Below are positions 2,285 through 24,488 of a DNA stretch of 34,771 nucleotides, piece after piece. The notes under the pieces were generated by a model. That model had not been told where the DNA came from. It saw only the letters and a list, made by a program, of their open reading frames with translations, and did not search any database. This stretch comes from Candidatus Woesearchaeota archaeon. Lineage in GTDB: Archaea > Nanobdellota > Nanobdellia > Woesearchaeales > WJIZ01. Positions within the stretch are counted from its first letter, which is position 1; each line of letters starts with the position of its first letter. Made by a program: the position numbers and the translations under genes. The stretch lies in assembly GCA_018221205.1 (NCBI GenBank), contig JAAOYF010000034.1, positions 1-34,771 on the forward strand, in the 5' to 3' direction.

Positions 2285-2296
2285 AGTAGTAATCTC

Positions 2297-2683: not shown

Positions 2684-2708
2684 TTCTCTTCCTCTTTTTT
2701 ATGCTGTG

Positions 2709-2731
2709 TCAGAGATTCAAAGAATCTCTGA
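2709..2731. repeat. Perfect 10-bp hairpin TCAGAGATTC-AAA-GAATCTCTGA
   Basis: Read directly in the oapA-oapB spacer. Confidence 0.85.
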
Positions 2732-2756
2732 TCGCCAATAAAAAAGCTTTTGCTTT

Positions 2757-4821: not shown

Positions 4822-6342
4822 ATGTCCGTTAAAGGTCTCATTATCTCAGGCGAGTTTGGAAAAGTACTTGCTAGGCAGAAGTCCGATCAACCGTTAGAGA
4901 TAGGTGAGTTGTTGATAGGAGGGACAGAGAAAAAGATTCTTTTGCAGGTGACAGATCTTCTTTACGGCAGCCAAATTTCTCAGCAGAATCTGGAATTGAT
5001 CTCCGGAATAAGCTTAGAGGAAAACTCTCCAGTCGAATTCTTTGACCAAAACTTAAGAAATTATAGTCTCGCAGTATTGAAAAGCCTCATCACCATCAGC
5101 AAAGGCAAGTCAAAGCTCGCAAAAGAACTGCCGAAGTTCCTCTCAGAGATAAGAGAAGTGAAAAAAGAGGACCTTTCGTTCATAACCCAGCCTAAAAATC
5201 CTTTATACATCGGAAAGATGCGCTCTGGCTCAAAGACTCTTGATGTTGATATCTCCCTGCCCGGAAAAAAGGTGTTCTCTCACCATATCCTTATCCCAGC
5301 GACAACAGGAAGAGGCAAGTCTAATCTCACCTCCTGCATCTTATGGAACTGCTTGGATAAAGAGTATTGCGGCATTCTTGTCTTGGATCCTCATGACGAA
5401 TACTATGGGAGAAATGATCTAGGACTGAAGGACCATAAGGAAAAGGACTGCTTAACATATTACACCAACAATAATCCACCGCCCGGAACAAACTCATTGA
5501 GGATAAATCTCAACATCATCCGTCCAGGCCATTTCGAAGGTGTTGTCTATTGGTCTGATCCCCAAAGACAGGCACTGCATGCATACTATAAGAAATTCAA
5601 GGACAGATGGATCGAAGCCATCATCTTAGAGAAACCTTTAGATGTTTCTTTTATGGAAGGGACAATGGCAGTCGTCAAAAGAAGGCTATTGTCATTGCTG
5701 GATCTGGATTGGACCGGAGAGAGATTATTCTCGAACGGAATCTTCACCTTGAAAGGAGGAGAATCGACTGTTGCCGACATCTGCAATGATCTGGAGAGCG
5801 CAAAGACCGTTATCATAGACACATCCTCTTTTTCAGGAGAAGTCGAAATATTGATCGGATCATTGATCTCAACAGAGGTATTGAGAAGATACAAGAATTA
5901 TAAACTGAATGGAGATCTCGTTGACAAACCCGTCTTGAATATCATATTAGAAGAAGCGCCAAGAGTGTTAGGAAAAGACGTTTTGGAGAAAGGATCGAAC
6001 ATCTTCGCTACCATAGCAAGAGAGGGAAGAAAGTTCCAAGTCGGCTTGACAGCAATTACCCAATTGCCCTCTTTGATCCCAAGGCAGATTTTAGCAAATA
6101 TGAACACAAAGATAATCCTCGGCATAGAGATGGCCCCAGAAAGGCAGGCTATCATCGACTCAGCCAGCCAGGACATCTCAGATTCAGACCGGAATATAGC
6201 CAGTCTAGACATCGGAGAGGCCATCATAACATCTAATTTCTCACGTTTCGCAACTCCGGTGAAGATTCCTCTCTTCCAGGATCTCGTAAAATCATCCCAA
6301 CAGACGGATCTCAAGACTTCTTTCACAGGAATCAAAAAATAG
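4822..6342 (+). CDS. herA: HerA-family helicase/translocase (HAS barrel plus FtsK/HerA ATPase)
   Basis: Walker [16 protein letters not shown], Walker [17 protein letters not shown] and ITQLP; adjacent to mre11. Confidence 0.88.
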
Positions 6343-6415
6343 TCTCTTAAATATTTTCTATATTGAAAATAATAACACTGAAAACCTTTTATAGCATACA
6401 GTATTCCTGCTTTCT

Positions 6416-7594
6416 ATGAAATATGCCCATATCGCAGACTGCCATATCGGCGGCTGGCGCGATCCGCAATTATCCGATTTAAGCATCAAAGCATTTGAGT
6501 TGGCCATAGATAAGGTCATAGAAGAGAAAGTCGATTTTGTATTGCTCGCAGGAGACCTTTTCAACACTTCTTTACCAGCAGTCGACAAATTAAAAGAAGC
6601 GACAAGAAAATTAAAGCAGCTCAAAGACAATGATATTCCTGTCTACATGATTGCAGGCAGCCATGACTATTCTCCTTCAGGAAAGACCATGCTTGATGTC
6701 TTAGAAAATGCTGGCCTAGCAGTGAATGTCTGCAAAGGAGAGGAAAAAGACGGCAAACTCCATCTTAAGTTCACCATCGACAAGAAGACAGGTGCAAAGA
6801 TAACAGGCATTCTAGGAAGGATGGGCTCTTTGGATAAGAATTATTTTGAAAACTTGGCAAGAGAGCCGCTAGAAAAGGAGACAGGCTATAAGATATTCTT
6901 ATTTCACGCGTTATTGACAGAATTAAAGCCAAAAAATCTTGATAAAGTCGATTCCCATCCTCTGTCCTTGCTACCAAAGAATTTCAACTATTATGCAGGA
7001 GGCCATCCTCATTTCGTGCATAACGAGGACATGAAAGGATATGGCCGTGTGTGCTATACTGGCCCATTATTCCCGAATAGTTTTTCAGAGTTGGAAGAAC
7101 TGGGAAATGGAGGATTTTTCATAGTTGAAAACGATGAAGTGAAAAGAATCTCCATTAAGCTGTATGATGTCGAAAGGATCAGCATTGGCTGTAATCATGA
7201 TACTGCAGAGCAGGCAGAGGAAAAACTAAGAAAAGCCCTTGATAAAGATCTCAAAAGCAAGATAGTGACAATGAGGATGTCCGGAACATTAGAATCAGGA
7301 AAACCCTCTGATATCGACTTCAGGCAGCTCTTTACAGAAGCAAAAGCAAAAGGAGCATTCGCAATTCTAAGAAATACCTCTGCCTTGACATCAAAAGAAT
7401 TCGAAGAGATCAAAGTAGAACTCTCAAACCCAGAAGAAGTCGAAGAAAAGCTTATTGAGGAATATATCGATAAAGACTCTGTTTCTTTGACAAAAGAGCT
7501 GCTCAAGACACTAGACACCCAAAAGCAGGAAGGCGAGACAGTCTATGTCTTCGAAAAACGTTTAAAAGATGAAATTGATAGGATTCTAAGATAA
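6416..7594 (+). CDS. mre11: Mre11/SbcD DNA repair nuclease
   Basis: Phosphoesterase motifs DCHIG, GDLF, GSHD, FH and GHPH, followed by a capping domain. Confidence 0.88.
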   Translation: MKYAHIADCHIGGWRDPQLSDLSIKAFELAIDKVIEEKVDFVLLAGDLFNTSLPAVDKLKEATRKLKQLKDNDIPVYMIAGSHDYSPSGKTMLDVLENAGLAVNVCKGEEKDGKLHLKFTIDKKTGAKITGILGRMGSLDKNYFENLAREPLEKETGYKIFLFHALLTELKPKNLDKVDSHPLSLLPKNFNYYAGGHPHFVHNEDMKGYGRVCYTGPLFPNSFSELEELGNGGFFIVENDEVKRISIKLYDVERISIGCNHDTAEQAEEKLRKALDKDLKSKIVTMRMSGTLESGKPSDIDFRQLFTEAKAKGAFAILRNTSALTSKEFEEIKVELSNPEEVEEKLIEEYIDKDSVSLTKELLKTLDTQKQEGETVYVFEKRLKDEIDRILR

Positions 7595-7637: not shown

Positions 7638-8138
7638 ATGGCTGAACCAGTATATGTAGAAAGAAAAAACCAGGAATCAGGTAGCCTAGCTCCTTCTCTT
7701 GTAGAAAAGATGGAGGATAGCCGCTCAAGGAGATATCACGGAGAGAAGATTATAACACTCTACACTCTTGCGACAGATCTTAAACAAGGAAGAGAGCTTC
7801 GCCATAGACTAGAAAAGGACTTAAGACTAATGGGTTATGATGATGGCGACATCGATTCAATCTTGCTTTGTACGAATGAACATTACAATAACGCAACACA
7901 GCATAGTAGGGAGACGATGCCAGATGGAATTGTAAAGGTTTTTTATAGGATAACAAGAGATAGGTTCAAATTTGTTACAGAACAGGAAAATCCATGGGAG
8001 AAAGTTCCCGATTTTGATACCATTCAGGAACCAGATCTTGAGAGTCCAAGGGGGCGAGGACTTTTCCTTATGAAAAAGTACATGACCGAAATGAAACTAG
8101 AAAAAAAGAGAGTATTGGTCATTGAGTATCGCAAATAA
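7638..8138 (+). CDS. Degenerate HATPase_c (RsbW/SpoIIAB anti-sigma-factor-like) protein
   Basis: N-box-like TNEHYNNATQH and G2-like ESPRGRGLFLMKKYM; the DxGxG box is not recognisable. Confidence 0.6.
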   Translation: MAEPVYVERKNQESGSLAPSLVEKMEDSRSRRYHGEKIITLYTLATDLKQGRELRHRLEKDLRLMGYDDGDIDSILLCTNEHYNNATQHSRETMPDGIVKVFYRITRDRFKFVTEQENPWEKVPDFDTIQEPDLESPRGRGLFLMKKYMTEMKLEKKRVLVIEYRK

Positions 8139-9384: not shown

Positions 9385-10680
9385 TCATGGTTTATACCGT
9401 AGCATAGTCCGTGGAAAAGGAATAGCATCTTTGATGTTGTCAGAACCGCATAACCAGGCGATGACTCGTTCTATACCGACACCATAGCCAGAGTGAGGCA
9501 CGCTTCCATATTTTCGAAGATCAAAATACCATTCATAATTGCTGATATCCTCTCCTTCTTTCTTCAGATCCTTTTTCATCTCTTCAATATCAGTGCTTCT
9601 CTGACTTCCACCGATAATCTCCCCATGACCTTCAGGAGCGAGCATGTCAAAACAAAGCGCTTCTTCTTTGTTCTTGGGATCTCGAGGCTTGTAGAAAGCC
9701 ATGACCTCTTTTGGATAATGCGTAACGACAATTGGAGTATCGAAATGTTCCATGAGTTTATCTTCTTCAATTGTCCTGAGATCCTTCCCAAACTCGATCG
9801 CGAGCTTGGCTTTTTCTTTTAGAATCTTTATTGCTTCTTTATACTTGATAGTCGGCCATTTCTTCTCTGAAATCTTGATCAGTTTTTTTGGATCCCTGTT
9901 CAAAAGAGCAAATTCCTCAGCACACCTTTCAGCAGTCTGTTTCATGCAATATTTTATTTCCTTCTTCGCAAATTCAGTAACTTCAGTTAAATCAAACCAG
10001 GCAGCTTCCATCTCTGCCATCCAGAATTCAGATAGGTGCCTTGATGTCTTAGATTTTTCAGCTCTGAACGTCGGAGACATATTATATATTTTCTCCAAAG
10101 AAAAGACAGCTGCTTCAGCATAGAGCTGCCATGATTGCGCTAAATAGGTCTTATCTTTGTAATACTTTACTTCAAATAAAGTAGAGCCGCCTTCACACTG
10201 GTTGGGCTGAAGAATCGGCGCATCGAATCTGGTGAATCCTTCTTTCCGAAAGAATTCATCACGAGCCTGTACATAAGCACTCCTTATTTTCATGACAGCA
10301 GTTAATTTTCTGCTCCTGATCCAAAGATGCCTCTTATCGAGTAAAAACTCAGGTGATTGGTCTTTCGTAATGGGATAAGTATCACTCTCCCCGACAACAG
10401 CAAAGTCTGAAACAAGGATTTCATATCCAGTTGGGGCTCTTTTGTCTTCTTTTATCTCTCCGGTTATCTCCATCGAAGCTTCGATCTGGACTTTTTTGGC
10501 AATAAGAAATTTCTCCTCACCAACATCTTCTTTAGAAATAACACATTGGATGATATTTGAGCTGTCTCGGAGAACAATGAACTTCAGTTTATTCGAACCT
10601 CTCTCACGATACACCCAGCCTCTGACACTTACTTTGCCAGAGCCTTTTTTCATCGCTTCTTGTATACTAGTGAACTTCAT
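9385..10680 (-). CDS. asnS: Asparagine--tRNA ligase
   Basis: OB-fold N-terminus; CEGGSTLF, LAQSWQLY, FRAEKSKTSRHLSEFWMAEME and WYFDLRKYGSVPHSGYGVGIER. Confidence 0.9.
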   Translation of the reverse strand: MKFTSIQEAMKKGSGKVSVRGWVYRERGSNKLKFIVLRDSSNIIQCVISKEDVGEEKFLIAKKVQIEASMEITGEIKEDKRAPTGYEILVSDFAVVGESDTYPITKDQSPEFLLDKRHLWIRSRKLTAVMKIRSAYVQARDEFFRKEGFTRFDAPILQPNQCEGGSTLFEVKYYKDKTYLAQSWQLYAEAAVFSLEKIYNMSPTFRAEKSKTSRHLSEFWMAEMEAAWFDLTEVTEFAKKEIKYCMKQTAERCAEEFALLNRDPKKLIKISEKKWPTIKYKEAIKILKEKAKLAIEFGKDLRTIEEDKLMEHFDTPIVVTHYPKEVMAFYKPRDPKNKEEALCFDMLAPEGHGEIIGGSQRSTDIEEMKKDLKKEGEDISNYEWYFDLRKYGSVPHSGYGVGIERVIAWLCGSDNIKDAIPFPRTMLRYKP

Positions 10681-12383
10681 TTTAACCCCAATTCATCCAA
10701 CTGTTTCTTATCAACTGGTCCAGGACTGCCATCCATCGGACATTCTGCATTCTTATTTTTTGGAAAAGCAATCACTTCTCGGATATCATGGGTGCCGCAT
10801 AAAATTGCAACAAGTCGATCAAAGCCCAATCCCATACCTCCGTGGATAGGAGCGCCATACTTATAGGCCTCGAGCAAATAGCCGAATTTCTTCATAGCAA
10901 CCTCTTCTTTCAGGCCGATGATTTTCATCACTTTCTTCTGGATTGAAGTATCATGGATTCGGATCCCGCCTGACCCAAGTTCAGTGCCATTCAACACAAT
11001 ATCAAAGAGATTAGCCATGACTTTGCCAGGGTCCTTCTCCAACAAAGGAAGGTGCTCTTTTTTAGGCATCGAGAACATATGATGGCTCGGACTCCAACTT
11101 TTCTCATCTTCATCCCACTCAAAAAGAGGAAAATCAACAACCCAGCAGAATTTAAAGGAATCTTTCTTCCTCAATTCCAAAGAATCACCTAACTTTAATC
11201 GTAATTTACCAAGAACATCATTGACTGTCTCTTTTTTATCAGCGACAAACAATAAAACACCTTTCTTGCCGAGTTTAAGGAGGTCTTTCTCGATTCCTTT
11301 CATGAATTTAGCAATAGGCCCTTCAAGTTCTTTGCCTAATTTCAACCAAGCCAATCCTTTAGCACCTTCTTCTTTGGCAAATTTCTCTAAAGCTTCAATC
11401 TCCTTCCGGGAATAATCCTTCTCGACATGGATGCATTTCACCGTCTCTGCAGAAGTAAAGATCTTGAATTCACTTTTCTTAACTAAAGCAGTAACATCAA
11501 TAAGTTCCATTCCAAATCTAATATCTGGTTTGTCAGTGCCAAATCTATTCATCGCTTCTTCATAAGAAAAGACAGGAAATTGAGGATCAGCTTTCTTGCC
11601 TAATTTCTTCATGATATGCTTAAATAACCCTTCTACAAAATGCATGATCTCTTTTTCATCAACAAAACTCATCTCAAAATCCATCTGAGTATGCTCTGGC
11701 TGCCTGTCTTGCCGAAGATCTTCATCTCGCAAACAGCGGGCAAACTGATAATATCTATCCACTCCAGAGATCATCAGGATCTGCTTGTAGATTTGAGGAC
11801 TTTGAGGCAATGCATAGAACTTTCCTTTATTCACACGAGAAGGCACAACATAATCTCGCGCACCCTCAGGAGTGCTTCGAATAAGCAAAGGTGTTTCAAT
11901 CTCCAGAAATCCATGTGAATTAAAGAATTCACGGGCAGCCATTGAAGCATTATGCCGCAATTTAAGATTTCGTTGCATCTCTGGTTTGCGTAGATCAAGA
12001 TAACGATATTTCAAACGAGTCTCTTCAGTTGATTGCACATCTCCAAAGATTTCCATAGGCAGAGGAGCAGCTTTTCCAATCAAATCTAGACTATCGGCAA
12101 AAACCTCGATATCTCCAGTAGGGATATCTTTATTCACACTATGCCTCTTGGTGACCTTGCCAGAAATGGCAATCACATCTTCTCTATTAAGCTTAAGGGC
12201 ATGAGTATACATCTCTTTATTGTGCTGAGGATTAAAGACTATCTGGGTATGGCCCTCTCTATCCCGTAGATCAACAAAGATAAGGCCACCATGGTCTCTT
12301 CGTTTATGCATCCAACCCATCAAAGAAACAGTCTTGCCAGAATCCTTTCCCCTCAACGCATTGCAATCATGGCTTCTCTTCAT
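10677..12383 (-). CDS. aspS: Aspartate--tRNA ligase, bacterial type with GAD insertion
   Basis: RRDHGGLIFVDLRD, RLKYRYLDLR, STPEGARDY, ALPQSPQ, RFGTDKPDIRF plus a GAD-like insert, and GAPIHGGMGLGFDRL; 568 aa. Confidence 0.95.
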   Translation of the reverse strand: MKRSHDCNALRGKDSGKTVSLMGWMHKRRDHGGLIFVDLRDREGHTQIVFNPQHNKEMYTHALKLNREDVIAISGKVTKRHSVNKDIPTGDIEVFADSLDLIGKAAPLPMEIFGDVQSTEETRLKYRYLDLRKPEMQRNLKLRHNASMAAREFFNSHGFLEIETPLLIRSTPEGARDYVVPSRVNKGKFYALPQSPQIYKQILMISGVDRYYQFARCLRDEDLRQDRQPEHTQMDFEMSFVDEKEIMHFVEGLFKHIMKKLGKKADPQFPVFSYEEAMNRFGTDKPDIRFGMELIDVTALVKKSEFKIFTSAETVKCIHVEKDYSRKEIEALEKFAKEEGAKGLAWLKLGKELEGPIAKFMKGIEKDLLKLGKKGVLLFVADKKETVNDVLGKLRLKLGDSLELRKKDSFKFCWVVDFPLFEWDEDEKSWSPSHHMFSMPKKEHLPLLEKDPGKVMANLFDIVLNGTELGSGGIRIHDTSIQKKVMKIIGLKEEVAMKKFGYLLEAYKYGAPIHGGMGLGFDRLVAILCGTHDIREVIAFPKNKNAECPMDGSPGPVDKKQLDELGLK

Positions 12384-12468
12384 TCATTTCATTAGTTCAG
12401 AGAGAATTTATAAAGGTTGTGCACCCTATCATAATCATCTTTTTAAACAGTATCCTAATTCTAATACC

Positions 12469-12705
12469 ATGGCAGGAAGCTGGATCGTTACAATGAAGAA
12501 TGGCACCCTACCTGATTTCGGAGTAGGTAGTATATCACCCATACATCAAGAGCAAGCACATAGATTTGAAGAAGGGGGCAGAGACATTCTTGAAGGTACC
12601 TATCGCCTCACCCTTCCCGATTTTGTCGATATGTGTAATCCTGATGCATTTTTTCGAGATACAGGTATAGAGATATGCATTTCAGCCAGGGAAGGTGCCT
12701 ATTGA
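12469..12705 (+). CDS. Short hypothetical protein, possibly a frameshifted gene extending to 12823
   Basis: ATG 12469 with TTTTAAA about 22 nt upstream; 78 aa. A +1 frame stays open from 12671 to 12823. Confidence 0.45.
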   Translation: MAGSWIVTMKNGTLPDFGVGSISPIHQEQAHRFEEGGRDILEGTYRLTLPDFVDMCNPDAFFRDTGIEICISAREGAY

Positions 12706-12832
12706 CAGGCCATGGCAACTTGTTCTAGCGTATCGAGATTCACTAGAAAGGGCAGAAGAAGCGACAGTAGTAGGTTATCAAGCACATCATCCAAGAGATA
12801 TGCTTAAAAAGAATCCAATATAAGATCCTATT

Positions 12833-13528
12833 ATGACAAATGAACTCCTTTGGATCCTATTCTTAATATTCTCTTATCTGGGCATCATGCTGGTCTACAA
12901 GTTCTTTGGAAGAAGTGGATTGTATGCCTGGACAGCCATGGCAGTAATCGTAGCGAACATCCAGGTGATGAAGACCATAGAGATATTCGGCTTCGTCACT
13001 GCTCTAGGAAATATAATCTACGGCTCTACTTTCTTGGTAACAGACATCTTATGCGAGAACCATGGAAAAAAAGAAGGAAGAAAAGCAGTCCTCCTAGGAT
13101 TCTTCATATTAGTAGCAGTAACGATATTGATGCAGCTCTCCTTGATGTTCATACCCCATGAATCAGATATATTAAATCCGGCCTTGCAGCAGATCTTCGG
13201 CCTTCTGCCGAGGATAGCCATTGCTTCATTGTCAGCCTATCTAATCTCCCAGACCTTTGATGTTTGGCTCTATAATAAGATAAAAGAAGCGACAAAAGAG
13301 AAACACCTCTGGCTCAGGAACAATGCCTCAACAATGGCCTCTCAATTGATTGACAATCTTATCTTCACTTGGATCGCTTTTGTGGGCTTTGGAGTGTTCT
13401 GGCCGCAGCTCTTCGGATGGCCCATCATCATCTCCATTTTCTTCACCTCTTACGTGATGAAATGGATCGTCGCAATCTTAGATACTCCTTTCTTATATCT
13501 GGCAAGAAAAATGAAGAATGGCGCCTAA
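12833..13528 (+). CDS. yhhQ: Queuosine precursor transporter (YhhQ/COG1738, VUT family)
   Basis: Multi-TM protein with ANIQVMK, GNIIYGSTFLVTDILCE, ASLSAYLISQTFDV, LWLRNNASTMASQLID and DTPFLY. Confidence 0.9.
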   Translation: MTNELLWILFLIFSYLGIMLVYKFFGRSGLYAWTAMAVIVANIQVMKTIEIFGFVTALGNIIYGSTFLVTDILCENHGKKEGRKAVLLGFFILVAVTILMQLSLMFIPHESDILNPALQQIFGLLPRIAIASLSAYLISQTFDVWLYNKIKEATKEKHLWLRNNASTMASQLIDNLIFTWIAFVGFGVFWPQLFGWPIIISIFFTSYVMKWIVAILDTPFLYLARKMKNGA

Positions 13529-14132
13529 AAAAGACTATGAAGAAGAAGCTTTCAAGAAGATTCATGCGAAGTTCGGAAAAGCATCCCAGACACTGATCAA
13601 GGAATTTCATGAGCTCTATAGAAAAGTAGACAGCAAGAGCCGTTCTCATCTCTACTATGTTTCTTCGGAAAATTTCATCAAGGACTGTGCCAATATCATC
13701 GAAGAGTCATACAATCAAGGAAAATACCAGATAATCGTGACCTTTGATCTCCGCACGAGAGATCTTGCCTTCAATCTCAAGGATAGGGGCATTGATTTAG
13801 AAGAGTGGCTTCATTTTGTCGACTGTATTTCTTATGCGACAGGGCATGGCGCTCCTCCGGTATTCAACCTCTTCTGCCTCAACCAACCAGATGAGTTCGA
13901 GAACATCTTCTATTATACTATCATGCACCTGTTGAAGCTCTATCCTGAAAACACCACAGTATCAGTCATATCCCCCTCGACCTTCCTCAATTACTCAAAT
14001 TATAATGATGTCGGCGTCTTCTTCCATTGGTTCATCGAGAAGCTGAACGAGCGCGGCATAAACGTCAATCTTTTATACAGGGAAGATGCAGACAATATTC
14101 TGCATGATATTCTGCAGAGAGAAGTAGGATGA
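13518..14132 (+). CDS. Hypothetical protein, probable inactive RecA/KaiC-like fold (paralogue 1)
   Basis: Overlaps the yhhQ stop; IIVTF...LKDRGID...LHFVDCIS pattern with no Walker A; clearly similar to the next ORF. Confidence 0.6.
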   Translation: MAPKKDYEEEAFKKIHAKFGKASQTLIKEFHELYRKVDSKSRSHLYYVSSENFIKDCANIIEESYNQGKYQIIVTFDLRTRDLAFNLKDRGIDLEEWLHFVDCISYATGHGAPPVFNLFCLNQPDEFENIFYYTIMHLLKLYPENTTVSVISPSTFLNYSNYNDVGVFFHWFIEKLNERGINVNLLYREDADNILHDILQREVG

Positions 14133-14782
14133 TAGACGATGCTGAATTGAGGGTTGAGAAAAGGCTAGTTGATAAGATAATCAAGAAAGTAGGCACGCTC
14201 TCGGAAGAATGGCAGGGCAATGTCCATGGATTCTTCAGGAAATACGCAGTAAGAGAACTGCCCAAGATCTTCATGGTCGATGAATATAACCTTGTACAGG
14301 AAGCTGCAGACGTCGCCGTCGAGATGCTCGCAAGCAACGATAAGGTGCTCATCATTACCTTCAATACCGAAACACGGGATTTAGTGGACAACATAAGCAA
14401 AGCAGGCGTTGAGACCGATGACAGGGTCTTTGTCATCGACACCATGTCCATCAAACAAGGCTACGGCACCCCTCCAGTAAAAAACCTCTACTGCATCAAT
14501 AACCCTACTGATTTCGATGAGATATTCGTCTATGCAAACCTCCTGATGGAAAGGATGAAAGGCTCAACAATAACAGCAATCATGGTCGCCCCCCATGAAT
14601 TGATGAAGCTGACTGATTTCTATGGCATGAAGACAGATTATAACGATGTCGGCATCTTCATCCAGTGGTTCTTTGACAGGCTTGCAGAAAGAGACATACC
14701 TTTGATGTTTGTCTATCCAAAGACAGGAGATAGGATTCTTGCTGAGATGATAAAAAGATTGGTGGATAAACAGGCAGAATAA
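14129..14782 (+). CDS. Hypothetical protein, probable inactive RecA/KaiC-like fold (paralogue 2)
   Basis: ATGA overlap with paralogue 1; shares G.PPV.NL.C.N.P..F..IF.Y and YNDVG.F..WF...L.ER.I with it. Confidence 0.6.
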   Translation: MIDDAELRVEKRLVDKIIKKVGTLSEEWQGNVHGFFRKYAVRELPKIFMVDEYNLVQEAADVAVEMLASNDKVLIITFNTETRDLVDNISKAGVETDDRVFVIDTMSIKQGYGTPPVKNLYCINNPTDFDEIFVYANLLMERMKGSTITAIMVAPHELMKLTDFYGMKTDYNDVGIFIQWFFDRLAERDIPLMFVYPKTGDRILAEMIKRLVDKQAE

Positions 14783-14784
14783 GT

Positions 14785-15081
14785 CTAGCTTTGCCAGGCA
14801 GGCATCTTCTTCATATACTCCTCAGCCAGTTTCTCAGCTTCTTCATCTGATTCCACTCTTTCGCCCATGACAGTGATGGCATCAGGGCTGAAGAATAATT
14901 TCTTGATATGCTGCTTTACTTCCTCTTTATCTTTGTAGCTGCCGTCAGGCTTGCAGCAATCTTTGCAGCGGGCATTATGAGGATCTCCTCCACCACAATC
15001 AGAAGGCTTCATAAGTCGTATGCCACAGCTTTCACAGTACTTGAACGCCGGTGCTTCTCCCTTCCTTTCTACATCAGCCAT
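14785..15081 (-). CDS. Stand-alone putative zinc-ribbon protein (Zn_ribbon_2-like)
   Basis: YCESCGIRL...CKDCC..DGSY and terminal MPAW; overlaps the 3' end of tgt by 13 nt. Confidence 0.7.
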   Translation of the reverse strand: MADVERKGEAPAFKYCESCGIRLMKPSDCGGGDPHNARCKDCCKPDGSYKDKEEVKQHIKKLFFSPDAITVMGERVESDEEAEKLAEEYMKKMPAWQS

Positions 15082-16256
15082 TTTTTCTTCATTTGCTTAA
15101 ACGTTCCTTCTTTTATACTTTTTCTTATGGAATCAAGCAAGTGCAGCATGAAATAGACATTATGATATGAAGCCAGTCTGAAATAACTTAATTCATTGAC
15201 CGTATAAAGATGCCGCAAGTAAGCCCGGGAATAATTCTTGCATACCATACAGCTGCAACCAGGGTCTATGGGCTTTGTATCTCCCTTGAAACGAGCACTT
15301 TTGATATTGATTCTGAATTTATTCTTAAAGCGACCTCCATTGCGAGGAGAGATATACACGCTTCCTCGGCGTGCATTTCGCGTTACCGAAACACAATCAA
15401 AAGTATCAATCCCGCGAGAGACACATTCAAAGATATCATCGATCTCTCCGATGCCAAGAAGATGCCGGGGACGGTCATCCAATAACGGAATGACCCATTC
15501 AAGGATCTGATGCATATCCTTTTTGCTCTTCCCTAAGCTGCCACCGATCGCGATTCCCTTAAAACCAAGATTATTGATAAAGGCAGCACTTTCAACACGA
15601 AGATCCCTGAACCAACCACCCTGGACAATTCCGTATAATGCTTGTTTCTTATCATGATATTTCAAAGAGTCCTTTGCCCATCGATGAGTCCTCTCCAAGG
15701 CCTTTGAAGTATAGGCCTTATCAGAAAGAGGACTGGTACATTCATCAAAAGCCATGATCACATCACTCCCAAGAACACTTTGGATCTGCATACTTTTCTT
15801 TGCATCCATAAAGTGCCACGTCCCATCATACACGCTTTGGAACTTGACCCCCTTACCAGTCACTTTGGCCATCTTTTTCTTGGTCGGCAATACACGTCTG
15901 CCTTCCGGAAAGATGCTGCCTAATTTATTGATATTATGTTCCATCCCAAAGCCCAGAGAAAAGGCCTGAAACCCCCCAGAATCAGAGAAAAGAGGTTTAT
16001 CAAAATGCATGAAGCCCCGTACACCGTTAAATTTCTTCAATACTTCCTCACCAGGTCGAAGATAAAGATGATAGGTATTAGCAAGACTGCATTGAGCTCC
16101 CAATGCATGGAGATCATCAGAATCCAGTGCCCTGACACTTCCCAGTGTAGCAACAGGAATCAAATAAGGCGTCTCTATCTTTCCATGCGTTGTAGAAATA
16201 ACACCAGTTCGTGCTTTTCCTTCTTTTTTAAGGATCTTGAAAGAAAACATTTTCAC
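15069..16256 (-). CDS. tgt: Bacterial-type tRNA-guanine(34) transglycosylase (queuine/preQ1-inserting)
   Basis: ANTYHLYLRPG, DSGGFQ, FDEC, GIVQGG, RHLLGIG, DTFDCV and Zn site CSCMVC...HN; no C-terminal PUA region. GTG start at 16256 (alternative ATG at 16250). Confidence 0.93.
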   Translation of the reverse strand: MKMFSFKILKKEGKARTGVISTTHGKIETPYLIPVATLGSVRALDSDDLHALGAQCSLANTYHLYLRPGEEVLKKFNGVRGFMHFDKPLFSDSGGFQAFSLGFGMEHNINKLGSIFPEGRRVLPTKKKMAKVTGKGVKFQSVYDGTWHFMDAKKSMQIQSVLGSDVIMAFDECTSPLSDKAYTSKALERTHRWAKDSLKYHDKKQALYGIVQGGWFRDLRVESAAFINNLGFKGIAIGGSLGKSKKDMHQILEWVIPLLDDRPRHLLGIGEIDDIFECVSRGIDTFDCVSVTRNARRGSVYISPRNGGRFKNKFRINIKSARFKGDTKPIDPGCSCMVCKNYSRAYLRHLYTVNELSYFRLASYHNVYFMLHLLDSIRKSIKEGTFKQMKKKWLM

Positions 16257-16822
16257 ACTTTGTCTTTCATCTTCAGTTGAAAGACAAGATCATCTAACTT
16301 TCGGATATCGTATTTGATGCCATCATATTTCCGTCTTAGTTCTCCATTGCGGAAATCAAATTTTGACAGCTCAATATACATCTGCTCCAGAAACTTCCTG
16401 ATCTTCACAGCCATCGGATAATTCTCTTTGATGCATGAATTGATGGCCTTCCTTACTAATTCCCCAGAGAGATCGCATAATCCCATCAGATAGAACTCAG
16501 GATCCTCAAATTCCTCAGAATAAACTAAGAATTTATCATTCTTAACAAACTCATATAAGCTTAATGCTTCGACATATTCCTGGATCGCGACTTTGAAGAT
16601 ACCTTCATGCTGCAGTTTTCCTTTTGATTCTTTCTTCAAGCCCGCAACATCTTCCTTCATCTGTTTAAGGACAGCAGCAGCCTCAGGAAGCGTATCCCTA
16701 TGGATAGAGCCGATAGCTGTTTTGGATTTCTGGATAATCTTTCTGCTGGAACGGATGACTTTCTCCCGTTTCTTGTCATAGCTACTAAATTTTTTCCGTA
16801 TCTGCTCAAGGTTGATTTTCAT
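16253..16822 (-). CDS. Translin/Trax (C3PO-like) family protein
   Basis: Start moved to ATG 16822 (MKINLEQ), with a TATA box about 23 nt upstream; REKVIRSSR, QEYVEA, YLMGLCDLSGELVR and LRRKYD motifs. Confidence 0.85.
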   Translation of the reverse strand: MKINLEQIRKKFSSYDKKREKVIRSSRKIIQKSKTAIGSIHRDTLPEAAAVLKQMKEDVAGLKKESKGKLQHEGIFKVAIQEYVEALSLYEFVKNDKFLVYSEEFEDPEFYLMGLCDLSGELVRKAINSCIKENYPMAVKIRKFLEQMYIELSKFDFRNGELRRKYDGIKYDIRKLDDLVFQLKMKDKV

Positions 16823-16844
16823 AGTGTGAAAGAACAAAGAGGCC

Positions 16845-16903: not shown

Positions 16904-17485
16904 ATGGCAGATGAAAGTAGGTTTCGAGCTATAATTGACTTTTTTGATGCTGTCGGCTTGTTTGATGTAGTTCTTCCGTTCATTCTGGTCTTCACTATTG
17001 TCTTCGCCATATTGGAAAAGACAAAGGTGCTGGGCACAGAAGAGATATCTGGCAAGCATTACACCAGAAAGAACCTTAATGCGATGGTAGCATTCGTCAT
17101 GGCATTCTTGGTGATAGCTTCATCTAGGCTGGTCGAGATCATAACAACAGTTTCCTCACAGATATTCATACTTCTATTGTTATCAGTACTCTTCCTTTTG
17201 TTGGTAGGCTCTTTTTACCAGGATGCAGAAGGCGGCTATCTGAAAGGTGGCTGGAAGACCTTCTTTATGGGATTGATGTTTCTTGGCATCGTCTTCATAT
17301 TTCTGGGAGCTATCGAAAATGATGACGGCGATACCATGTTAGATGTATTTTGGGACTGGGCCAAGGGCTCAGGTGATGAGACCACGATCGTGGGCTCTGT
17401 CGTATTGCTGATCGTATTGATCTTGGCCATCATGTACATGGTCAAAGATCCAAATCATACTGTAGAGAAGAAAGAAAAGAAATGA
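16904..17485 (+). CDS. Multi-pass membrane protein (paralogue 1)
   Basis: About 5 hydrophobic segments; LPFILVFTIVFAILEKTKVLG motif. Confidence 0.8.
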   Translation: MADESRFRAIIDFFDAVGLFDVVLPFILVFTIVFAILEKTKVLGTEEISGKHYTRKNLNAMVAFVMAFLVIASSRLVEIITTVSSQIFILLLLSVLFLLLVGSFYQDAEGGYLKGGWKTFFMGLMFLGIVFIFLGAIENDDGDTMLDVFWDWAKGSGDETTIVGSVVLLIVLILAIMYMVKDPNHTVEKKEKK

Positions 17486-17494
17486 GGTGTTATA

Positions 17495-18088
17495 ATGGCA
17501 AATAGAAATTTTTTCCTTGAGGATTTCCTTCGATCATTGGACAGTTGGGGAATAACAGACATTCTCCTTCCCTTCCTGCTGGTATTTGTTATAGTATTCG
17601 CAGTATTGGAGAAAACCTCTGTCTTAGGACAAGGCAAGAAAAATTTTAACGTGATATTTGCCCTCATACTTGGTTTTGCAGTGGTCATTCCTCACTCGAC
17701 CAGTTCCTATCCTATCAGCTTTGACCCTGTAGACATCATCAACGCAGCCCTTCCACAGGTCTCTATCTTGGTAGTGGCGATCATGATGCTCCTTGTTCTC
17801 ATAGGAGTCTTTGCTCATGACAAGGTCTTTCTCGGCTTGGCCATGCCTGGCTGGATCGGTTTCTTTTCTATCATCTCAATCATCTACATCTTCGGCAATG
17901 CAGCTGGTTTCTGGGGAGCAGGTGGTTTGCAGGCATTTTTAGGAGAAGACATCGTAGCCATAGTGGTCATGATATTGGTGTTCGGCCTGATCATCGCATT
18001 TATCACATCCAGCAAGGATGATACAAAGAGTGCCCTTGAACGAGGAGGAATAGCCTTTAAGCAGCTCTTCGGCGGCGGCAAGCATTAA
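17495..18088 (+). CDS. Multi-pass membrane protein (paralogue 2)
   Basis: LPFLLVFVIVFAVLEKTSVLG motif; GAGGTG SD upstream. Confidence 0.8.
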   Translation: MANRNFFLEDFLRSLDSWGITDILLPFLLVFVIVFAVLEKTSVLGQGKKNFNVIFALILGFAVVIPHSTSSYPISFDPVDIINAALPQVSILVVAIMMLLVLIGVFAHDKVFLGLAMPGWIGFFSIISIIYIFGNAAGFWGAGGLQAFLGEDIVAIVVMILVFGLIIAFITSSKDDTKSALERGGIAFKQLFGGGKH

Positions 18089-18090
18089 AA

Positions 18091-18612
18091 ATGGCCACAT
18101 TCTTTGATTTGACAGGCTTGGAAGCGTTTTCAAAGGTCTTCATCTTTATTTTAGTAGTCATATCCATATATGCAATCCTTCACTTCTCAAAATTCGGCAG
18201 GATATCATGGTTGCCATGGTTAGTGGCATTAGTGATGGGGTTGTTCGTCATCATGTCGGATCTCGCGACTGGATTGATAAAGGCACTCATTCCTTGGGGC
18301 GCTGTCCTCTTCCTCTTCCTCGTATTTTCGATGACTGCCTCTCAGATGTTCGGTGCTGCACCCGCAGACTGGGCACAGTTTAAATGGGTGTTATACATTA
18401 TCGTGATCCTTATCCTATTTATCAGCACCATGTTCTATTTCAGAGAGAATACCGTCGTTCCTGGAGATATCGATGAAGACCAGGACGAATTGAAAGAAGC
18501 CAGTTATTTCACATCAGGAAATTTCTTCTTGCATCCAAATTTCCTTGCCTTGATGTTCATCCTGCTGGTGGGGATATTCACTGTCGCGCTGCTGGCAGGA
18601 AAGTCTATTTAG
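18091..18612 (+). CDS. Multi-pass membrane protein (divergent paralogue 3)
   Basis: FIFILVVISIYAILHFSK matches the same N-terminal motif; similar TM layout. Confidence 0.75.
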   Translation: MATFFDLTGLEAFSKVFIFILVVISIYAILHFSKFGRISWLPWLVALVMGLFVIMSDLATGLIKALIPWGAVLFLFLVFSMTASQMFGAAPADWAQFKWVLYIIVILILFISTMFYFRENTVVPGDIDEDQDELKEASYFTSGNFFLHPNFLALMFILLVGIFTVALLAGKSI

Positions 18613-19903: not shown

Positions 19904-20041
19904 ATGAAAAGACCAATATCCGCCACAATAGATGAAGAACTCATTGATTGGATAGCGAAGCAGCTGAAAGATAAGACCAAGTACCGAAATAAATCTCACC
20001 TTATTGAGATCGCTTTAGAAAAGCTGAAGAAGGAAAAATGA
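19904..20041 (+). CDS. Ribbon-helix-helix (CopG/MetJ/Arc-like) DNA-binding protein, 45 aa
   Basis: Hand translation: MKRPISATIDEELIDWIAKQLKDKTKYRNKSHLIEIALEKLKKEK*; ATGA overlap with the ATPase start. Confidence 0.82.
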   Translation: MKRPISATIDEELIDWIAKQLKDKTKYRNKSHLIEIALEKLKKEK

Positions 20042-22317
20042 AAGAGCCCTTTTCATATAAAACCATAAGGCAAGGAGAAGATTCTGTCTTGCAGATAGAC
20101 TGTGAGCAATATATCAGGCTTCCCTCTATCGAAGATGATCCCATGACCATGTCAAGGGCCATCGACATACTCACCAAAGAACGGAATGTGACGAAGATAG
20201 TCTTCCAGCAGAAGAGGGATTATGAATATGATTTCGAGCAGACCTCTCTGTTGAGAGAGGTCGCCGCATTATATGTCAAGCTCATAAAATCAAAAGACCT
20301 CTTGAGTTTCAGGACTTTAGACTATCAGAAATGCGAACGGTTCATCGGAGGCTGGTATGCTGAACTAAGAAATATAGTCTCACACATATTGAAGACAGAT
20401 CCGGCAGGCGCCTATGTCGAGCTGAAGAGGATCCATAGGAGAGAATCAATAAAATTAGACAAATATGCTGATGAGACAGCATCGGCGTGTGTGAAAGGCT
20501 ATCTGGATATCCTGACAAGGATCATTGAGATGTTCGAAAAGACCAAATTCATAGCTACAATAAAACAATATTCAGCAGGCCACAAGCCAGGTGACAGAGA
20601 AGTCTACCAGCGCATCTTCAGAGCGACCATCAAGCCAGATTTCATGTTCACCAAGCTGATGGCGACCTATCCCCCAGAAGGAGAGGAATTAGATAACTAC
20701 GAACTGCCGGATGGTTCTGAAGTAACAATTTTTGAACTCCCTGATACGGTCCAATATCTCTATCACATAACCCCTCCGGAATTTCGGTTGGATGAAGACC
20801 AATATGAAATACTGGATACTGCAAGGAAAGTCATGGCAGAGCACAAGCCAAAGCGTTCTGATTTTGTCGATCCAGAAAGGATAAGGCAGGTCTTCCAGAA
20901 TGTAGGAAAGGATTTGATAGAAGAGCTGGCAGGCTACAAGAATATAAGGCTCAAAGATAAGGAAATTACGATGCTAACCAGTATCTTGGTGAGATACACC
21001 ATCGGCTTCGGTTTGATCGAAGTCCTCATGCAGGATGAGAAGATCCAGGACGTGACGATCAATTCCCCGATGGGTGAGATTCCTATGTTCATCGTCCATC
21101 AGGATTTTGGAGACTGCAAGACCAATGTCATCCCCACCGAGCCTGAATCTGAAAGCTGGGCTTCAAAATTAAGGCTCATCTCCGGCCGCCCATTAGACGA
21201 GGCCAATCCCATATTGGATACAGAGCTTTCCCTCCCAGGAGCTTCTGTCAGGGTCGCAGTCATCGCTTCTCCATTGAATCCTACTGGGTTAGCGTATGCC
21301 TTCAGGAGGCATCGTGACCGTCCTTGGACCCTTCCTCTCTTCATAAAGCAGAAGATGCTTGACCCATTGTCAGCAGGAATCTTGAGCTTCTTGATAGATG
21401 GATCAAGGACAATGTTGATAGCAGGAACAAGATCAGCAGGAAAGACCTCTTTATTGAGTGCAGTCATGGTCGAAGTCATGAGAAGAGGAAGGATGATCAC
21501 CATAGAAGATACGTTAGAGCTCCCAGTCTCCTCATTAAGAAAACTTGGTTTTAATATCCAATCCATGAAAGTCGCTTCTGCCATGTCCCATGGAACAGCA
21601 GAAGTCCCTGCTGATGAAGGCATCCGTACAACGCTAAGATTAGGAGATTCAGGATTGATAATCGGAGAAGTAAGGTCTACCGAAGCAAAAGCATTATACG
21701 AATCCATGCGTATCGGCGCTCAGGCAAACATAGTGGCCGGAACAATCCACGCCGACTCCCCTTATGGAGTATTCGATAGGGTGACAAATGATCTGGGCGT
21801 GCCTAAAACATCCTTCAAAGCCACTGATGTCATCGTCGTAGCAAACCCCATAAGGTCTCCAGATGGCATCCATCGATGGAGACGGGTAACACAGATAACT
21901 GAAGTCCGCAAGCAATGGGAGAACGATCCCATGCTGGAGCAGGGCTTTGTTGATCTGATGCGTTATTCCCCGAAAGAAGATACTCTCAAGCCTTCAGATG
22001 AGCTGATAAATGGTGATTCAGAGGTCCTGAAGGCAATCGCTGGCAATGTGAAGGAATGGGCCGGCAACTGGGACGCGATCTGGGAAAATATCCTCATGAG
22101 GGCGAAGATAAAGGAATCGATAGTCAAATATTCCGAAAAGCATAAACGCCCTGATCTATTGGAAGCAGAGTTCGTCATATTGGCAAATGATGAGTTCCAT
22201 AAGATCTCAGACAGGGTTGCAGAGAGGACAGGCTCTTTAGATGCGAAGAAGATATTCTTCGAATGGGAAGAGTGGCTCAAGCGCAGGCTCAAGAAAGACA
22301 GGTTTAAAGCCCAATAA
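20038..22317 (+). CDS. Type II/IV secretion (VirB11/CpaF/ArlI-like) ATPase with long N-terminal extension
   Basis: Walker A GTRSAGKT, TIEDTLEL, Walker B IIGEVRS and His box GTIHADS. Confidence 0.9.
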   Translation: MKEPFSYKTIRQGEDSVLQIDCEQYIRLPSIEDDPMTMSRAIDILTKERNVTKIVFQQKRDYEYDFEQTSLLREVAALYVKLIKSKDLLSFRTLDYQKCERFIGGWYAELRNIVSHILKTDPAGAYVELKRIHRRESIKLDKYADETASACVKGYLDILTRIIEMFEKTKFIATIKQYSAGHKPGDREVYQRIFRATIKPDFMFTKLMATYPPEGEELDNYELPDGSEVTIFELPDTVQYLYHITPPEFRLDEDQYEILDTARKVMAEHKPKRSDFVDPERIRQVFQNVGKDLIEELAGYKNIRLKDKEITMLTSILVRYTIGFGLIEVLMQDEKIQDVTINSPMGEIPMFIVHQDFGDCKTNVIPTEPESESWASKLRLISGRPLDEANPILDTELSLPGASVRVAVIASPLNPTGLAYAFRRHRDRPWTLPLFIKQKMLDPLSAGILSFLIDGSRTMLIAGTRSAGKTSLLSAVMVEVMRRGRMITIEDTLELPVSSLRKLGFNIQSMKVASAMSHGTAEVPADEGIRTTLRLGDSGLIIGEVRSTEAKALYESMRIGAQANIVAGTIHADSPYGVFDRVTNDLGVPKTSFKATDVIVVANPIRSPDGIHRWRRVTQITEVRKQWENDPMLEQGFVDLMRYSPKEDTLKPSDELINGDSEVLKAIAGNVKEWAGNWDAIWENILMRAKIKESIVKYSEKHKRPDLLEAEFVILANDEFHKISDRVAERTGSLDAKKIFFEWEEWLKRRLKKDRFKAQ

Positions 22318-22343
22318 TAACCAAGATAAATTAAGACTCAATA

Positions 22344-24488
22344 ATGACCAAGATAAAAAAAGAGGAGTACAAAGACTTATTAGATAAATATAAATCCAAA
22401 CTTTCTCAGGAATTAGAAGGCCACGTAGAAGAAGCCATTCCCCAGACAAGGGAGTATACTCAATTCAGGCAGGAGATTCTTCCTCCTCATATGAATGCAT
22501 ATGAGAAAGCATGCCAGTTTGCAGGAAAGATCCTTAATCTCAAGCCGGATAAGAAAAAAGCACCCTTGTTGCAGGAAGCTATAGAATCCGCTCATCTTAA
22601 TATCACCCCCATAGGGGCAGTTTCCTTTGGTATTCTTGTCCCTCTTCTCCTGATAGTGATTGGCAGCATAGTCGCTTTTGCTTTTCTCCAATCATTGATG
22701 TTTGTCATGATAGTCCTTATTCTCGGAGTAATCATGATCAAACCCCTTTCGAATCTTCCCATCTACATCGCTTCGTACTGGCGTTTGAAAGCTTCCAATC
22801 AGATGGTACTCTGCATTTTCTATGTGGTAACATATATGCGTCATACCTCTAATATTGAAAAAGCCATCCAGTTCGCATCAGAGCATCTCTCTCCTCCTCT
22901 TTCATTGGACATGAGAAAGATCGTCTGGGATGTCGAGACAGAGAAATATGATACACTGAAGCAATCATTGGATATCTACCTGAATTCATGGAGAAAATAC
23001 AATGTCGAATTTGTCGAGGCATTCCATTTGGTAGAATCTTCTTTGTTGGAAGGCGATGAGACAAGAAGATTGGGTGCACTAGACCGTGCCTTGGATGTCA
23101 TCCTGGAAGAGACATATGAAAAGATGCTGCATTATGCCCATCATCTGAAATCCCCTATCACCATGCTCCATATGCTCGGTATAATCCTCCCCATCCTAGG
23201 ATTAGTCATCCTTCCCTTGGTTGTTTCTTTTATGGAAGGGGTGAGCTGGCTCCATCTGTTCTTCTTCTACAACATCATCATTCCAGTAGCAGTCTATTCA
23301 TTAGGCCGTTCAATCCTGACTAAGCGTCCTACTGGCTATGGAGATACAGATATCTCTGAAGAGATCCCTTCATTGAAGAAATTCAAGAACGTCATGGTAA
23401 GATTCGGAAAGAACATCGTACCCATCAACCCCATCATCTTCGCCATCATCATCGGAGGCATCATCCTCCTGATAGGTCTCTCCCCCATCATTATACACTC
23501 TCTCTCTCCAGCATTTGAATTTCCCGCCGATCCAGATGCCTCGTTCCATCTGATGGAATATCAGGAGGATACTGATGGAAACCTCGTAGGCCCCTTTGGT
23601 CTCGGAGCGTCAATATTGAGTCTATTCGTCACATTGGCATTCGGTCTTGGCTTTGGTCTGTTCTTCAGGTTGAGGTCAAAGAACCTCATCAAGATAAGAC
23701 GGAAGACAAAGAAGCTCGAGGACGAATTTGCCTCTGCATTGTTTCAATTAGGGAACCGATTAGGAGATAACATACCTGCAGAGCTGGCTTTTTCGACAGT
23801 TGCAGAGTATATGCAAGATACTGCTTCTGGAAAATTCTTCAGTTTGGTAAGTATCAACATAAGAAAGCTCGGCATGAGCGTCCAGCAGGCCATTTTCTCC
23901 CCGAAATATGGGGCTATCCGCTATTTCCCCTCTAAAATCATCGAAAGCTCCATGAAAGTGCTCGTAGAGTCAGTAAAGAAAGGTCCAAGGATAGCAGCAC
24001 AGTCCCTCACCAATATGGCACGCTACATCAAGGAGATCCATAGGGTCAACGAACGCTTGAAAGACCTCATGGCTGATATTGTTTCATCGATGAATTCTCA
24101 GATCAAGTTCCTCACACCAGCAATATCCGGCATAGTGGTAGGGATAACCTCTATGATCACCTTCATCTTGGCAAGGCTCTCGACCCAGCTGGCGAAATTA
24201 GGACAGGGGTCTGAACTCGGAACCTCCACTTTGGGTGTAGCGACCATCTTCGGATTAGGCATCCCTACTTACTTCTTCCAGATTGTCGTCGGATTATACG
24301 TCGTGCAGATCATCTATATCCTGACCATTATGTCCAACGGCATCGAGAATGGGTCTGACAAGCTGAATGAGCGCTATCAGGTAGGCGTCAACATCATGAA
24401 GAGCACCATTCTATATTGTTTCATAGCGCTGTTCGTGATGATCCTCTTCAACTTCATCGCCTCTAATATCATCTCAAGTTCTCTGTAA
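22344..24488 (+). CDS. Type IV pilus platform membrane protein (TadC/ArlJ-like, two T2SSF-like halves)
   Basis: Follows the ATPase; two cytoplasmic domains, each followed by TM helices. Confidence 0.78.
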   Translation: MTKIKKEEYKDLLDKYKSKLSQELEGHVEEAIPQTREYTQFRQEILPPHMNAYEKACQFAGKILNLKPDKKKAPLLQEAIESAHLNITPIGAVSFGILVPLLLIVIGSIVAFAFLQSLMFVMIVLILGVIMIKPLSNLPIYIASYWRLKASNQMVLCIFYVVTYMRHTSNIEKAIQFASEHLSPPLSLDMRKIVWDVETEKYDTLKQSLDIYLNSWRKYNVEFVEAFHLVESSLLEGDETRRLGALDRALDVILEETYEKMLHYAHHLKSPITMLHMLGIILPILGLVILPLVVSFMEGVSWLHLFFFYNIIIPVAVYSLGRSILTKRPTGYGDTDISEEIPSLKKFKNVMVRFGKNIVPINPIIFAIIIGGIILLIGLSPIIIHSLSPAFEFPADPDASFHLMEYQEDTDGNLVGPFGLGASILSLFVTLAFGLGFGLFFRLRSKNLIKIRRKTKKLEDEFASALFQLGNRLGDNIPAELAFSTVAEYMQDTASGKFFSLVSINIRKLGMSVQQAIFSPKYGAIRYFPSKIIESSMKVLVESVKKGPRIAAQSLTNMARYIKEIHRVNERLKDLMADIVSSMNSQIKFLTPAISGIVVGITSMITFILARLSTQLAKLGQGSELGTSTLGVATIFGLGIPTYFFQIVVGLYVVQIIYILTIMSNGIENGSDKLNERYQVGVNIMKSTILYCFIALFVMILFNFIASNIISSSL

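Follow-up and report, generated by a model that had tools for sequence, protein, structure and literature searches.

A predicted bacterial-type base-salvage pair, tgt and yhhQ, in a Woesearchaeota genome

A tgt and a yhhQ gene at one archaeal locus

Queuosine is treated as a bacterial and eukaryotic modification, and archaeosine as an archaeal one. We analysed a stretch of 34,771 nucleotides from Candidatus Woesearchaeota archaeon (assembly GCA_018221205.1, contig JAAOYF010000034.1; contig C9 of our set), called the window in the following, that carries the gene for a tRNA-guanine transglycosylase (TGT) of bacterial type and the gene for YhhQ (QPTR), an importer of 7-deazaguanine bases. An initial annotation had placed these genes, together with asnS and a bacterial-type aspS, within about 7.5 kb, and all four were indeed recovered with scores above the family cut-offs; the 7.5 kb includes a translin gene, and the span from asnS to tgt is 6.9 kb. 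Archaeal genes on the contig (OapB, OapC, HerA, an intron-bearing tRNA-Phe) and the nearest named relatives of the TGT, which are labelled 'Candidatus Woesearchaeota', suggest a placement in Woesearchaeales. The assembly comprises 1.28 Mb in 74 contigs (94.78% complete, 0.59% contaminated), and the GC content of the discussed genes (0.39-0.44) is similar to that of the contig. Between positions 9000 and 17500 of the window, 29 of the 30 bins were covered by contigs of one public run, which may be the source sample itself, with no joints or differences listed. The two core genes of the predicted module are:

12833-13528, + strand: yhhQ/QPTR (COG1738), 7-deazaguanine base importer (TIGR00697 234 bits, cut-off 51; PF02592 180 bits)
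15069-16256, - strand: tgt, bacterial-type tRNA-guanine(34) transglycosylase of the short-pocket (GGSLG), long-insert subtype (TIGR00430)

The tgt product counts 395 amino acids from a GTG start, or 393 from an ATG two codons on. Its assignment as a bacterial-type enzyme that lacks a PUA domain was borne out: it scored 467 bits on TIGR00430, the model for G34 enzymes (equivalog cut-off 307), 121 bits on the archaeosine TGT (arcTGT) model TIGR00432 (below the cut-off of 350) and 38 bits on the DpdA model NF041059 (below the cut-off of 200), and Pfam recognised the TGT domain alone. The sequence is 43% identical to the E. coli TGT versus 24-26% to arcTGT, its best sequence matches in the PDB are bacterial TGTs (E 1e-88; arcTGT 1iq8, E 2e-16), and the arcTGT pocket (VVP, HLFG) is absent. 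Phage and plasmid collections held no close relative (best 43.5%). The enterobacterial plasmid hits H31-H36 are divergent tgt genes (~29% identity) annotated beside the 16S rRNA methyltransferase resistance genes rmtG and rmtD, and are unrelated to the module.

The catalytic residues are kept (D92, D171, Q212, G239, D287), which we take to correspond to D102, D156, Q203, G230 and D280 of Z. mobilis, in a numbering mapped via E. coli. Likewise kept are the Cys3His zinc site (C334/C336/C339/H365), R293 and R296 (E. coli R270 and R273) and, as C173, the equivalent of Cys158. The Z. mobilis positions L231, A232, V233, E235, C158 and D280 were confirmed in Biela 2013 (PMC3660597). The pocket departs from the canonical form: the loop GGLAVGE becomes GG-SLGK, one residue shorter and with Lys243 in place of Glu235, and the canonical preQ1 pocket GGL[AS]VGE (L231, V233, E235) is not matched. 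Furthermore, Met260 is replaced by Leu and a 25-residue insert, relative to E. coli, follows the DSGG motif; within the GGSLG subfamily this region exceeds its E. coli counterpart by 23-86 residues and is variable in length. An AlphaFold model built from a 92-row alignment reached a predicted local distance difference test (pLDDT) score of 90.7, with low confidence for residues 113-122 of the insert; a single-sequence model (pLDDT 32) was discarded.

A TGT phylogeny, as the initial annotation had proposed, gave a similar picture. IQ-TREE was run on 45 of the 81 collected TGT rows, after dropping most Woesearchaeales rows of a second type (see below), near-duplicate methanogens, three arcTGTs, some references and one DpdA-like row. 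The window TGT fell inside the bacterial TGTs, in a 39-row clade with E. coli (support 98/94), and in a 35-row short-pocket clade (100/99) that also holds rows from Nocardia, Tsukamurella, the Candidate Phyla Radiation (CPR), Chloroflexota, Deinococcota and a cyanobacterial metagenome-assembled genome (MAG); FastTree on 76 rows agreed with this placement. Approximately unbiased (AU) tests rejected a grouping of the window TGT with arcTGT (p 0.018), monophyly of the Woesearchaeales TGTs as a whole (p 3e-122) and monophyly of the short-pocket TGTs from Woesearchaeales (p 2e-64), while a clade of the rows of the window's own family plus G046 was not rejected (p 0.07). Nested among the Woesearchaeales rows (98/96, 100/99) were those of Methanotrichaceae, ANME-1, two CPR genomes, one Pacearchaeota and one bacterium. 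This suggests transfer of the short-pocket TGT out of the Woesearchaeales group, a direction that is a lead because the nested loci were chosen by their likeness to the window TGT. The second Woesearchaeales lineage (GG[LVI]xxGE; loci L020-L033 and L147-L164) branches outside the sampled bacterial TGTs, and most of its rows carry Met or Val in place of Cys158.

The window YhhQ is 45-48% identical to the QPTR proteins of Bacillus and Fusobacterium, its nearest named relatives in a tree that held no Chlamydia row. Across genomes the partner of the GGSLG-type TGT comes from either of two YhhQ subfamilies that are unrelated: that of the window and a separate clade (support 100) formed by Methanotrichaceae and four further GGSLG Woesearchaeales. 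Because the methanogen yhhQ belongs to this other subfamily, common to the four Woesearchaeales, the pairing of TGT and YhhQ arose more than once. Contig C11 of the window's genome (G000) carries another, distant yhhQ (34% identity; 1341-2048 of locus L074, - strand), upstream of a malate dehydrogenase gene. Its subfamily also occurs in genomes in which no TGT was matched (G011, G015, G025), and it may carry another substrate.

Gene inventory, target tRNAs and distribution of the pair

We searched the genome for the synthesis and maturation genes QueA, QueC, QueD, QueF, QueG and QueH (QueE, QueK and QueL were not searched for). There was no match for QueA (matched in 9 of 14 control genomes), QueH (2/14), QueG (9/14), QueF (7/14) or QueD (10/14), and the two QueC-family matches are an asparagine synthase and an NAD synthase. 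Qng1 (PF10343) was matched neither here nor in any control genome. Exactly one TGT-family gene was found, and no arcTGT. As no synthesis or maturation gene was found, salvage would be the sole route open. The initial annotation had also considered that YhhQ might feed archaeosine synthesis alone; this is contradicted because neither this genome nor 60 relatives yielded an arcTGT.

Among the candidate target tRNAs, tRNA-His(GUG) and tRNA-Tyr(GUA), the latter with one intron, have the U33-G34-U35 loop. The same loop is obtained for a predicted tRNA-Asn(GUU) (C74:13881-13984, - strand) after removal of two introns, one of 17 nt in the anticodon stem and one of 14 nt at 37/38; ARAGORN miscalls this gene as Leu. 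Introns occur in most tRNA genes of the genome, among them a tRNA-Phe(GAA) in the window (24517-24644, - strand; intron ~54 nt) that the default tRNA scan missed.

A bacterial-type TGT was found in 45 of the 61 genomes of the order, and a family search returned neither arcTGT nor a second TGT gene in the 60 relatives. The search is able to see arcTGT, since in a class-wide sample 27 of 151 genomes passed the cut-off, none of them labelled as belonging to this order. The gene content, given here as tallies and not as tests, differed between the pocket types. A GG[SA]LG TGT occurs in 14 genomes from nine families, with YhhQ in 14/14, QueA in 0/14 and QueH in 1/14; this lone QueH match (G046) is weak (95 bits versus 176-241 for the other 14 QueH matches), and NCBIfam gave no match for either QueH test protein. 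Three genomes with a GGAFG or GSLFG pocket have YhhQ in none, QueA in three and QueH in one. The remaining 28 TGT genomes, with GG[LVI]xxGE in the 26 that could be aligned and two fragments placed by exclusion, have YhhQ in 11, QueA in 12 and QueH in 12, so that the 31 TGT genomes outside the GG[SA]LG group together count 11 with YhhQ and 15 with QueA. In the 16 genomes with no TGT match, YhhQ was found in four, QueA in none and QueH in one. Within the GG[LVI]xxGE group QueA was not found in 16 of the 28 genomes, including the single-contig genomes G022 and G030, which show no YhhQ either.

A survey of synteny, also proposed beforehand, showed that tgt and yhhQ co-occur and are repeatedly adjacent. 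Among 13 relatives with the TGT type of the window, seven have yhhQ no more than 6 kb from tgt, and the gene order in the five closest relatives is translin, tgt, (a zinc-ribbon gene in two), convergent yhhQ and aspS. A scan of species genomes recovered 50 loci with a TGT of the window clade (pockets: 47 GGSLG, 2 GGNLG, 1 cut), of which one that duplicated a relative was dropped. Of the 49 left, 36 have yhhQ at a distance of at most 1 kb from tgt, and a QueA-family match was found in three genomes, one of them above the curated cut-off. In 35 of 37 methanogen-labelled loci (one of the 37 bears a Halobacteria label) yhhQ, there of the other subfamily, lies directly downstream of tgt on the same strand; negative distances, where the yhhQ frame starts inside the end of tgt, were counted as downstream neighbours. 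QueC was present in 5/5 Methanotrichaceae tested, QueG above cut-off was absent in 2/2, and five of eight methanogen-labelled genomes hold a full second gene of arcTGT type besides the GGSLG-type TGT. An importer dedicated to preQ0 is therefore unlikely in these methanogens, as far as gene content tells, and the co-resident arcTGT argues that their GGSLG-type enzyme is not the G15 enzyme. One locus labelled Methanosarcinales (L100) shows a Woesearchaeales-type block (translin, tgt, yhhQ, bacterial aspS) in a genome with no arcTGT found, and is probably mislabelled or misbinned.

Probable salvage, and the possible identity of the base

Judged from the gene sequences, we regard tgt and yhhQ as a genuine salvage module that is conserved and of bacterial type, in an archaeal host. 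Since no route to make or finish the base was found and the importer is present in every GG[SA]LG genome of the order, salvage into G34 is the economical reading, and it is quite probable that some scavenged base is placed at position 34. The initial annotation had proposed as much; its salvage part is backed by the missing synthesis and maturation genes and by the co-occurring importer, and which base is involved we infer from comparison only. In the proposed mechanism YhhQ would bring in a preformed 7-deazaguanine base, with queuine as the likeliest candidate, which TGT would then exchange for the guanine at position 34 of the His, Tyr, Asn and Asp tRNAs. By known TGT chemistry, D287 (Z. mobilis D280) would attack the ribose of G34, guanine would leave and the new base would be inserted, in tRNA-Tyr and tRNA-Asn after intron removal.

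We lean towards imported queuine, which would give Q34 directly, because QueA is missing, the preQ1 switch is altered, the pocket is Anaplasma-like, the TGT is akin to actinobacterial ones and the importer is kept in methanogens that make preQ0. In the Z. mobilis TGT the Leu231/Ala232 switch and Glu235 hold preQ1 (PMC3660597). The GGSLG pocket equals that of Anaplasma, a genus with tgt only, for which the modelled pocket leaves 4.0 Å to queuine versus under 1-1.8 Å for GGLAVG (Quaiyum 2024, PMC11570991). The window TGT joined the actinobacterial TGTs in the tree (100/99), and these are predicted to salvage queuine (PMC11130926).

Several observations weigh against queuine. With respect to the enzyme, the motif of queuine-salvaging TGTs is printed as GG[LS][AS]G (PMC11570991), to which GGSLG is no letter-for-letter match; eukaryotic queuine-using TGTs have Val at position 158, and C158V is linked to lower preQ1 affinity, while the window TGT keeps the Cys; and queuine binds bacterial TGT without turnover (Biela 2013, PMC3660597). 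With respect to the importer, the window YhhQ is sister to YhhQs of relatives that bear QueA/QueH, three of them in or near yhhQ-queH-queA-tgt clusters (such clusters were seen in G003, G040 and G055), which points to a preQ1-importing ancestry of this protein. Three Woesearchaeales on neighbouring short-pocket branches (GGAFG, GSLFG) have QueA, a cyanobacterial MAG combines GGSLG, as its only TGT, with a true QueA, and YhhQ also occurs in four of the 16 genomes with no TGT match. No tRNA-Asp turned up in 25 Rfam hits or in a relaxed scan of this 94.8%-complete genome in 74 contigs (relaxed ARAGORN thresholds gave noise), the absences of Que genes rest on the same incomplete assembly, and six of the 14 GG[SA]LG genomes come from the window's own family and are kin, not independent cases.

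Part of these points favours the salvage of preQ1, which YhhQ would import and TGT insert at G34, where it would either stay as such, as in Bartonella, or be finished by an unknown enzyme. Bartonella has TGT and QPTR, no QueA, and is nevertheless preQ1-preferring (PMC11570991); the retained Cys158, the kinship of the YhhQ with the Bacillus and Fusobacterium QPTRs and with those of QueA-bearing relatives, and the QueA found with neighbouring short-pocket TGTs (G038, G048, G060, G093) fit this reading as well. It is made rather unlikely by the alteration of exactly those elements that hold preQ1 in Z. mobilis (shorter loop, Lys243) and by the GGLAVG pocket of Bartonella, which the window TGT does not share. 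A lesser point is that Rfam found no riboswitch in the window or six loci, and hence no preQ1 riboswitch near yhhQ.

Less probable still, the GGSLG subfamily might insert another base (preQ0, 7-carboxy-7-deazaguanine (CDG) or an unknown 7-deazapurine) or act at another RNA site. The pocket is unlike that of all solved TGTs matched, and the long, variable insert, of low confidence in the model, leaves room for this. The retention of all catalytic residues and of R293/R296, the DpdA score far under its cut-off and the dedicated importer that Methanotrichaceae keep although they make preQ0 themselves argue the other way.

Gene neighbourhood and comparison with known systems

The neighbours of the two core genes are:

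9385-10680, - strand: asnS, asparaginyl-tRNA synthetase, member of an inherited block (TIGR00457 439.5 bits, cut-off 342.6)
10677-12383, - strand: aspS, bacterial-type with GAD domain, member of the inherited block (TIGR00459 724 bits, cut-off 374)
13518-14132, + strand: ORF A, 204 aa, paralogue of ORF B (28.6% identity, E 2e-32)
14129-14782, + strand: ORF B, 217 aa, possibly a KaiC-like/DUF7090-DUF7504-like archaeal protein, a lead only (weak DUF7090 match, below cut-off)
14785-15081, - strand: small zinc-ribbon protein, directly behind tgt (PF12674)
16253-16837, - strand: translin-family gene, overlapping the start of tgt by 4 bases, used as synteny control (PF01997 97 bits)

The initial annotation had suggested that the proximity of the Asp and Asn ligases may reflect a functional link. 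Counting genes within 6 kb of each other as linked, among relatives in which both were found (lower bounds, as assemblies are fragmented), tgt was linked to aspS in 18/43, to asnS in 8/23, to translin in 16/36, to yhhQ in 9/24 and to hisS in 0/43 relatives, and aspS to translin in 21/44; Fisher p-values carry no weight here, since related genomes are not independent samples. The clustering of tgt with aspS exceeds chance, since 18/43 stands against 0/43 for hisS. A co-selected unit of tgt and the ligases for Q34 tRNAs is nonetheless improbable. Such a unit would agree with the 20 of 44 TGT-bearing relatives in which aspS or asnS lies no more than 6 kb from tgt, a proximity seen for both TGT types and in differing orientations, and with the position of tgt between the two in G009, G016, G044 and G049, which leaves a residual link as a weak possibility. 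Translin shows linkage just as frequently, the block is also maintained where no tgt was found (aspS-translin 4/9, aspS-asnS 5/7), and the tgt and yhhQ of methanogen loci left the ligases behind; the neighbourhood is thus real and does not single out the Q34 ligases, and the gene orders present the Asp and Asn ligases as neighbours by descent. In the present genome the HisRS gene lies on C4, and C31 and C72 each carry one of the two class Ib (Tyr/Trp) ligases.

The inherited block, whose order is shuffled and which both TGT types occupy, consists of three membrane proteins, translin, tgt, aspS, asnS, mre11 and herA. In the window the three membrane proteins (16904-18612, + strand) belong to no family and are conserved beside translin across the order, and herA with an mre11-like phosphoesterase gene (4822-7594, no rad50 or nurA beside them) forms a pair that travels with the aspS/asnS/tgt block in several relatives. 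The accessory genes, which had been counted as part of the arrangement, are not conserved: among 222 loci searched, ORF A and ORF B have no homologue in other genomes and the zinc-ribbon gene is kept in two relatives only (G004, G006). ORF A and ORF B are insertions known from this genome only. As a lead to a KaiC-like identity, look-alikes of ORF B in the Atlas score 0.87-0.90, and a minority of their members are assigned to KaiC-type/DUF7504 families; ORF A gave no pairwise match to the KaiC-like ATPase of the window. The frame at 12334-12705 (+ strand), with no family match and no homologue in the loci, is probably not a gene.

Elsewhere in the window we noted: an Obg-like GTPase gene convergent with an oapC-oapB-small GTPase (oapA-like) operon (699-3389); an RsbW-like histidine-kinase-type ATPase (7638-8138, + strand; below cut-off), a bacterial-looking regulator in an archaeon; and two type II/IV secretion ATPases, accompanied by T2SSF-type membrane genes and a surface protein with a LamG domain (20038-24488 and 28653-34361), probably pilus systems.

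That the enzyme is a PUA-less archaeosine TGT acting at G15 on preQ0 supplied by YhhQ, as the archaeal host, the lack of any other TGT and the expectation that archaeal YhhQ serves archaeosine (Zallot 2017, PMC5372724) might suggest, can practically be dismissed on the model scores, identities, missing pocket and AU test given above and on the methanogens that hold both enzymes.

As a tentative scenario, for which we would claim less than even confidence, Woesearchaeales dropped archaeosine for queuosine, and in several lineages a GGSLG TGT specific for queuine moved into the chromosomal position that the older TGT type had beside aspS, made QueA and QueH dispensable and then spread from Woesearchaeales-type hosts to Methanotrichaceae, ANME-1 and some CPR bacteria. 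If so, cultured Methanothrix would carry archaeosine and scavenged queuosine. With a direct-salvage pair in archaea, the third domain would join the queuine micronutrient economy, and one metabolite that these reduced archaea obtain from their neighbours would be named. The enzyme, a natural TGT variant with a short loop and Cys158 kept, bears on the question of how a TGT comes to accept queuine, and the same enzyme type is present in a methanogen genus in culture.

Such a pair is less surprising given that bacterial Q genes, which the initial annotation mentioned for some DPANN genomes, are already published for DPANN archaea: QueA, QueH and Tgt were reported in 34 archaeal genomes, 12 of them DPANN (Castelle 2021, PMC8204110). 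The main text of that paper mentions YhhQ 0 times and one row of its Table S5 lists it as 'uncharacterized protein'; among 13/15 TGT rows some are, judged by length, long enough for the window type. A bacterial-type TGT in Woesearchaeota is common to that pathway and the window; unlike the window pair, the pathway matures preQ1 with QueA and QueH, and in our sample it mostly uses the GG[LVI]xxGE lineage. Our literature search (subscription journals and bioRxiv supplements lay outside it) retrieved no description of an archaeal TGT-YhhQ pair that lacks QueA.

Compared with the known enzymes, arcTGT shares superfamily and archaeal host with the window TGT, which differs by score, the lack of PUA, another pocket and a separate clade. 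With the canonical E. coli/Z. mobilis TGT it shares the catalytic Asp residues, C158, the zinc site, the length and the lack of PUA, and it differs in the loop shorter by one residue, E235 to K, M260 to L, the 25-residue insert and the lack of a QueA partner. Bartonella henselae (bacterial TGT and QPTR) has the same gene inventory, with the canonical GGLAVG in place of GGSLG. In Chlamydia trachomatis, bacterial TGT and QPTR salvage queuine directly in a genome devoid of QueA, QueG/H and QueCDEF (via PMC11570991 and PMC11130926). The window differs in that its host is archaeal, its TGT keeps Cys158 and the activity of the pair is predicted; membership in the Chlamydia clade is not claimed, the trees having held no Chlamydia sequence. 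Like that route, the window genome has TGT and QPTR and no QueA, QueG/H, QueC, QueD or QueF was found in it (QueE was not searched for), and by this analogy its pair would work as the Chlamydia route does.

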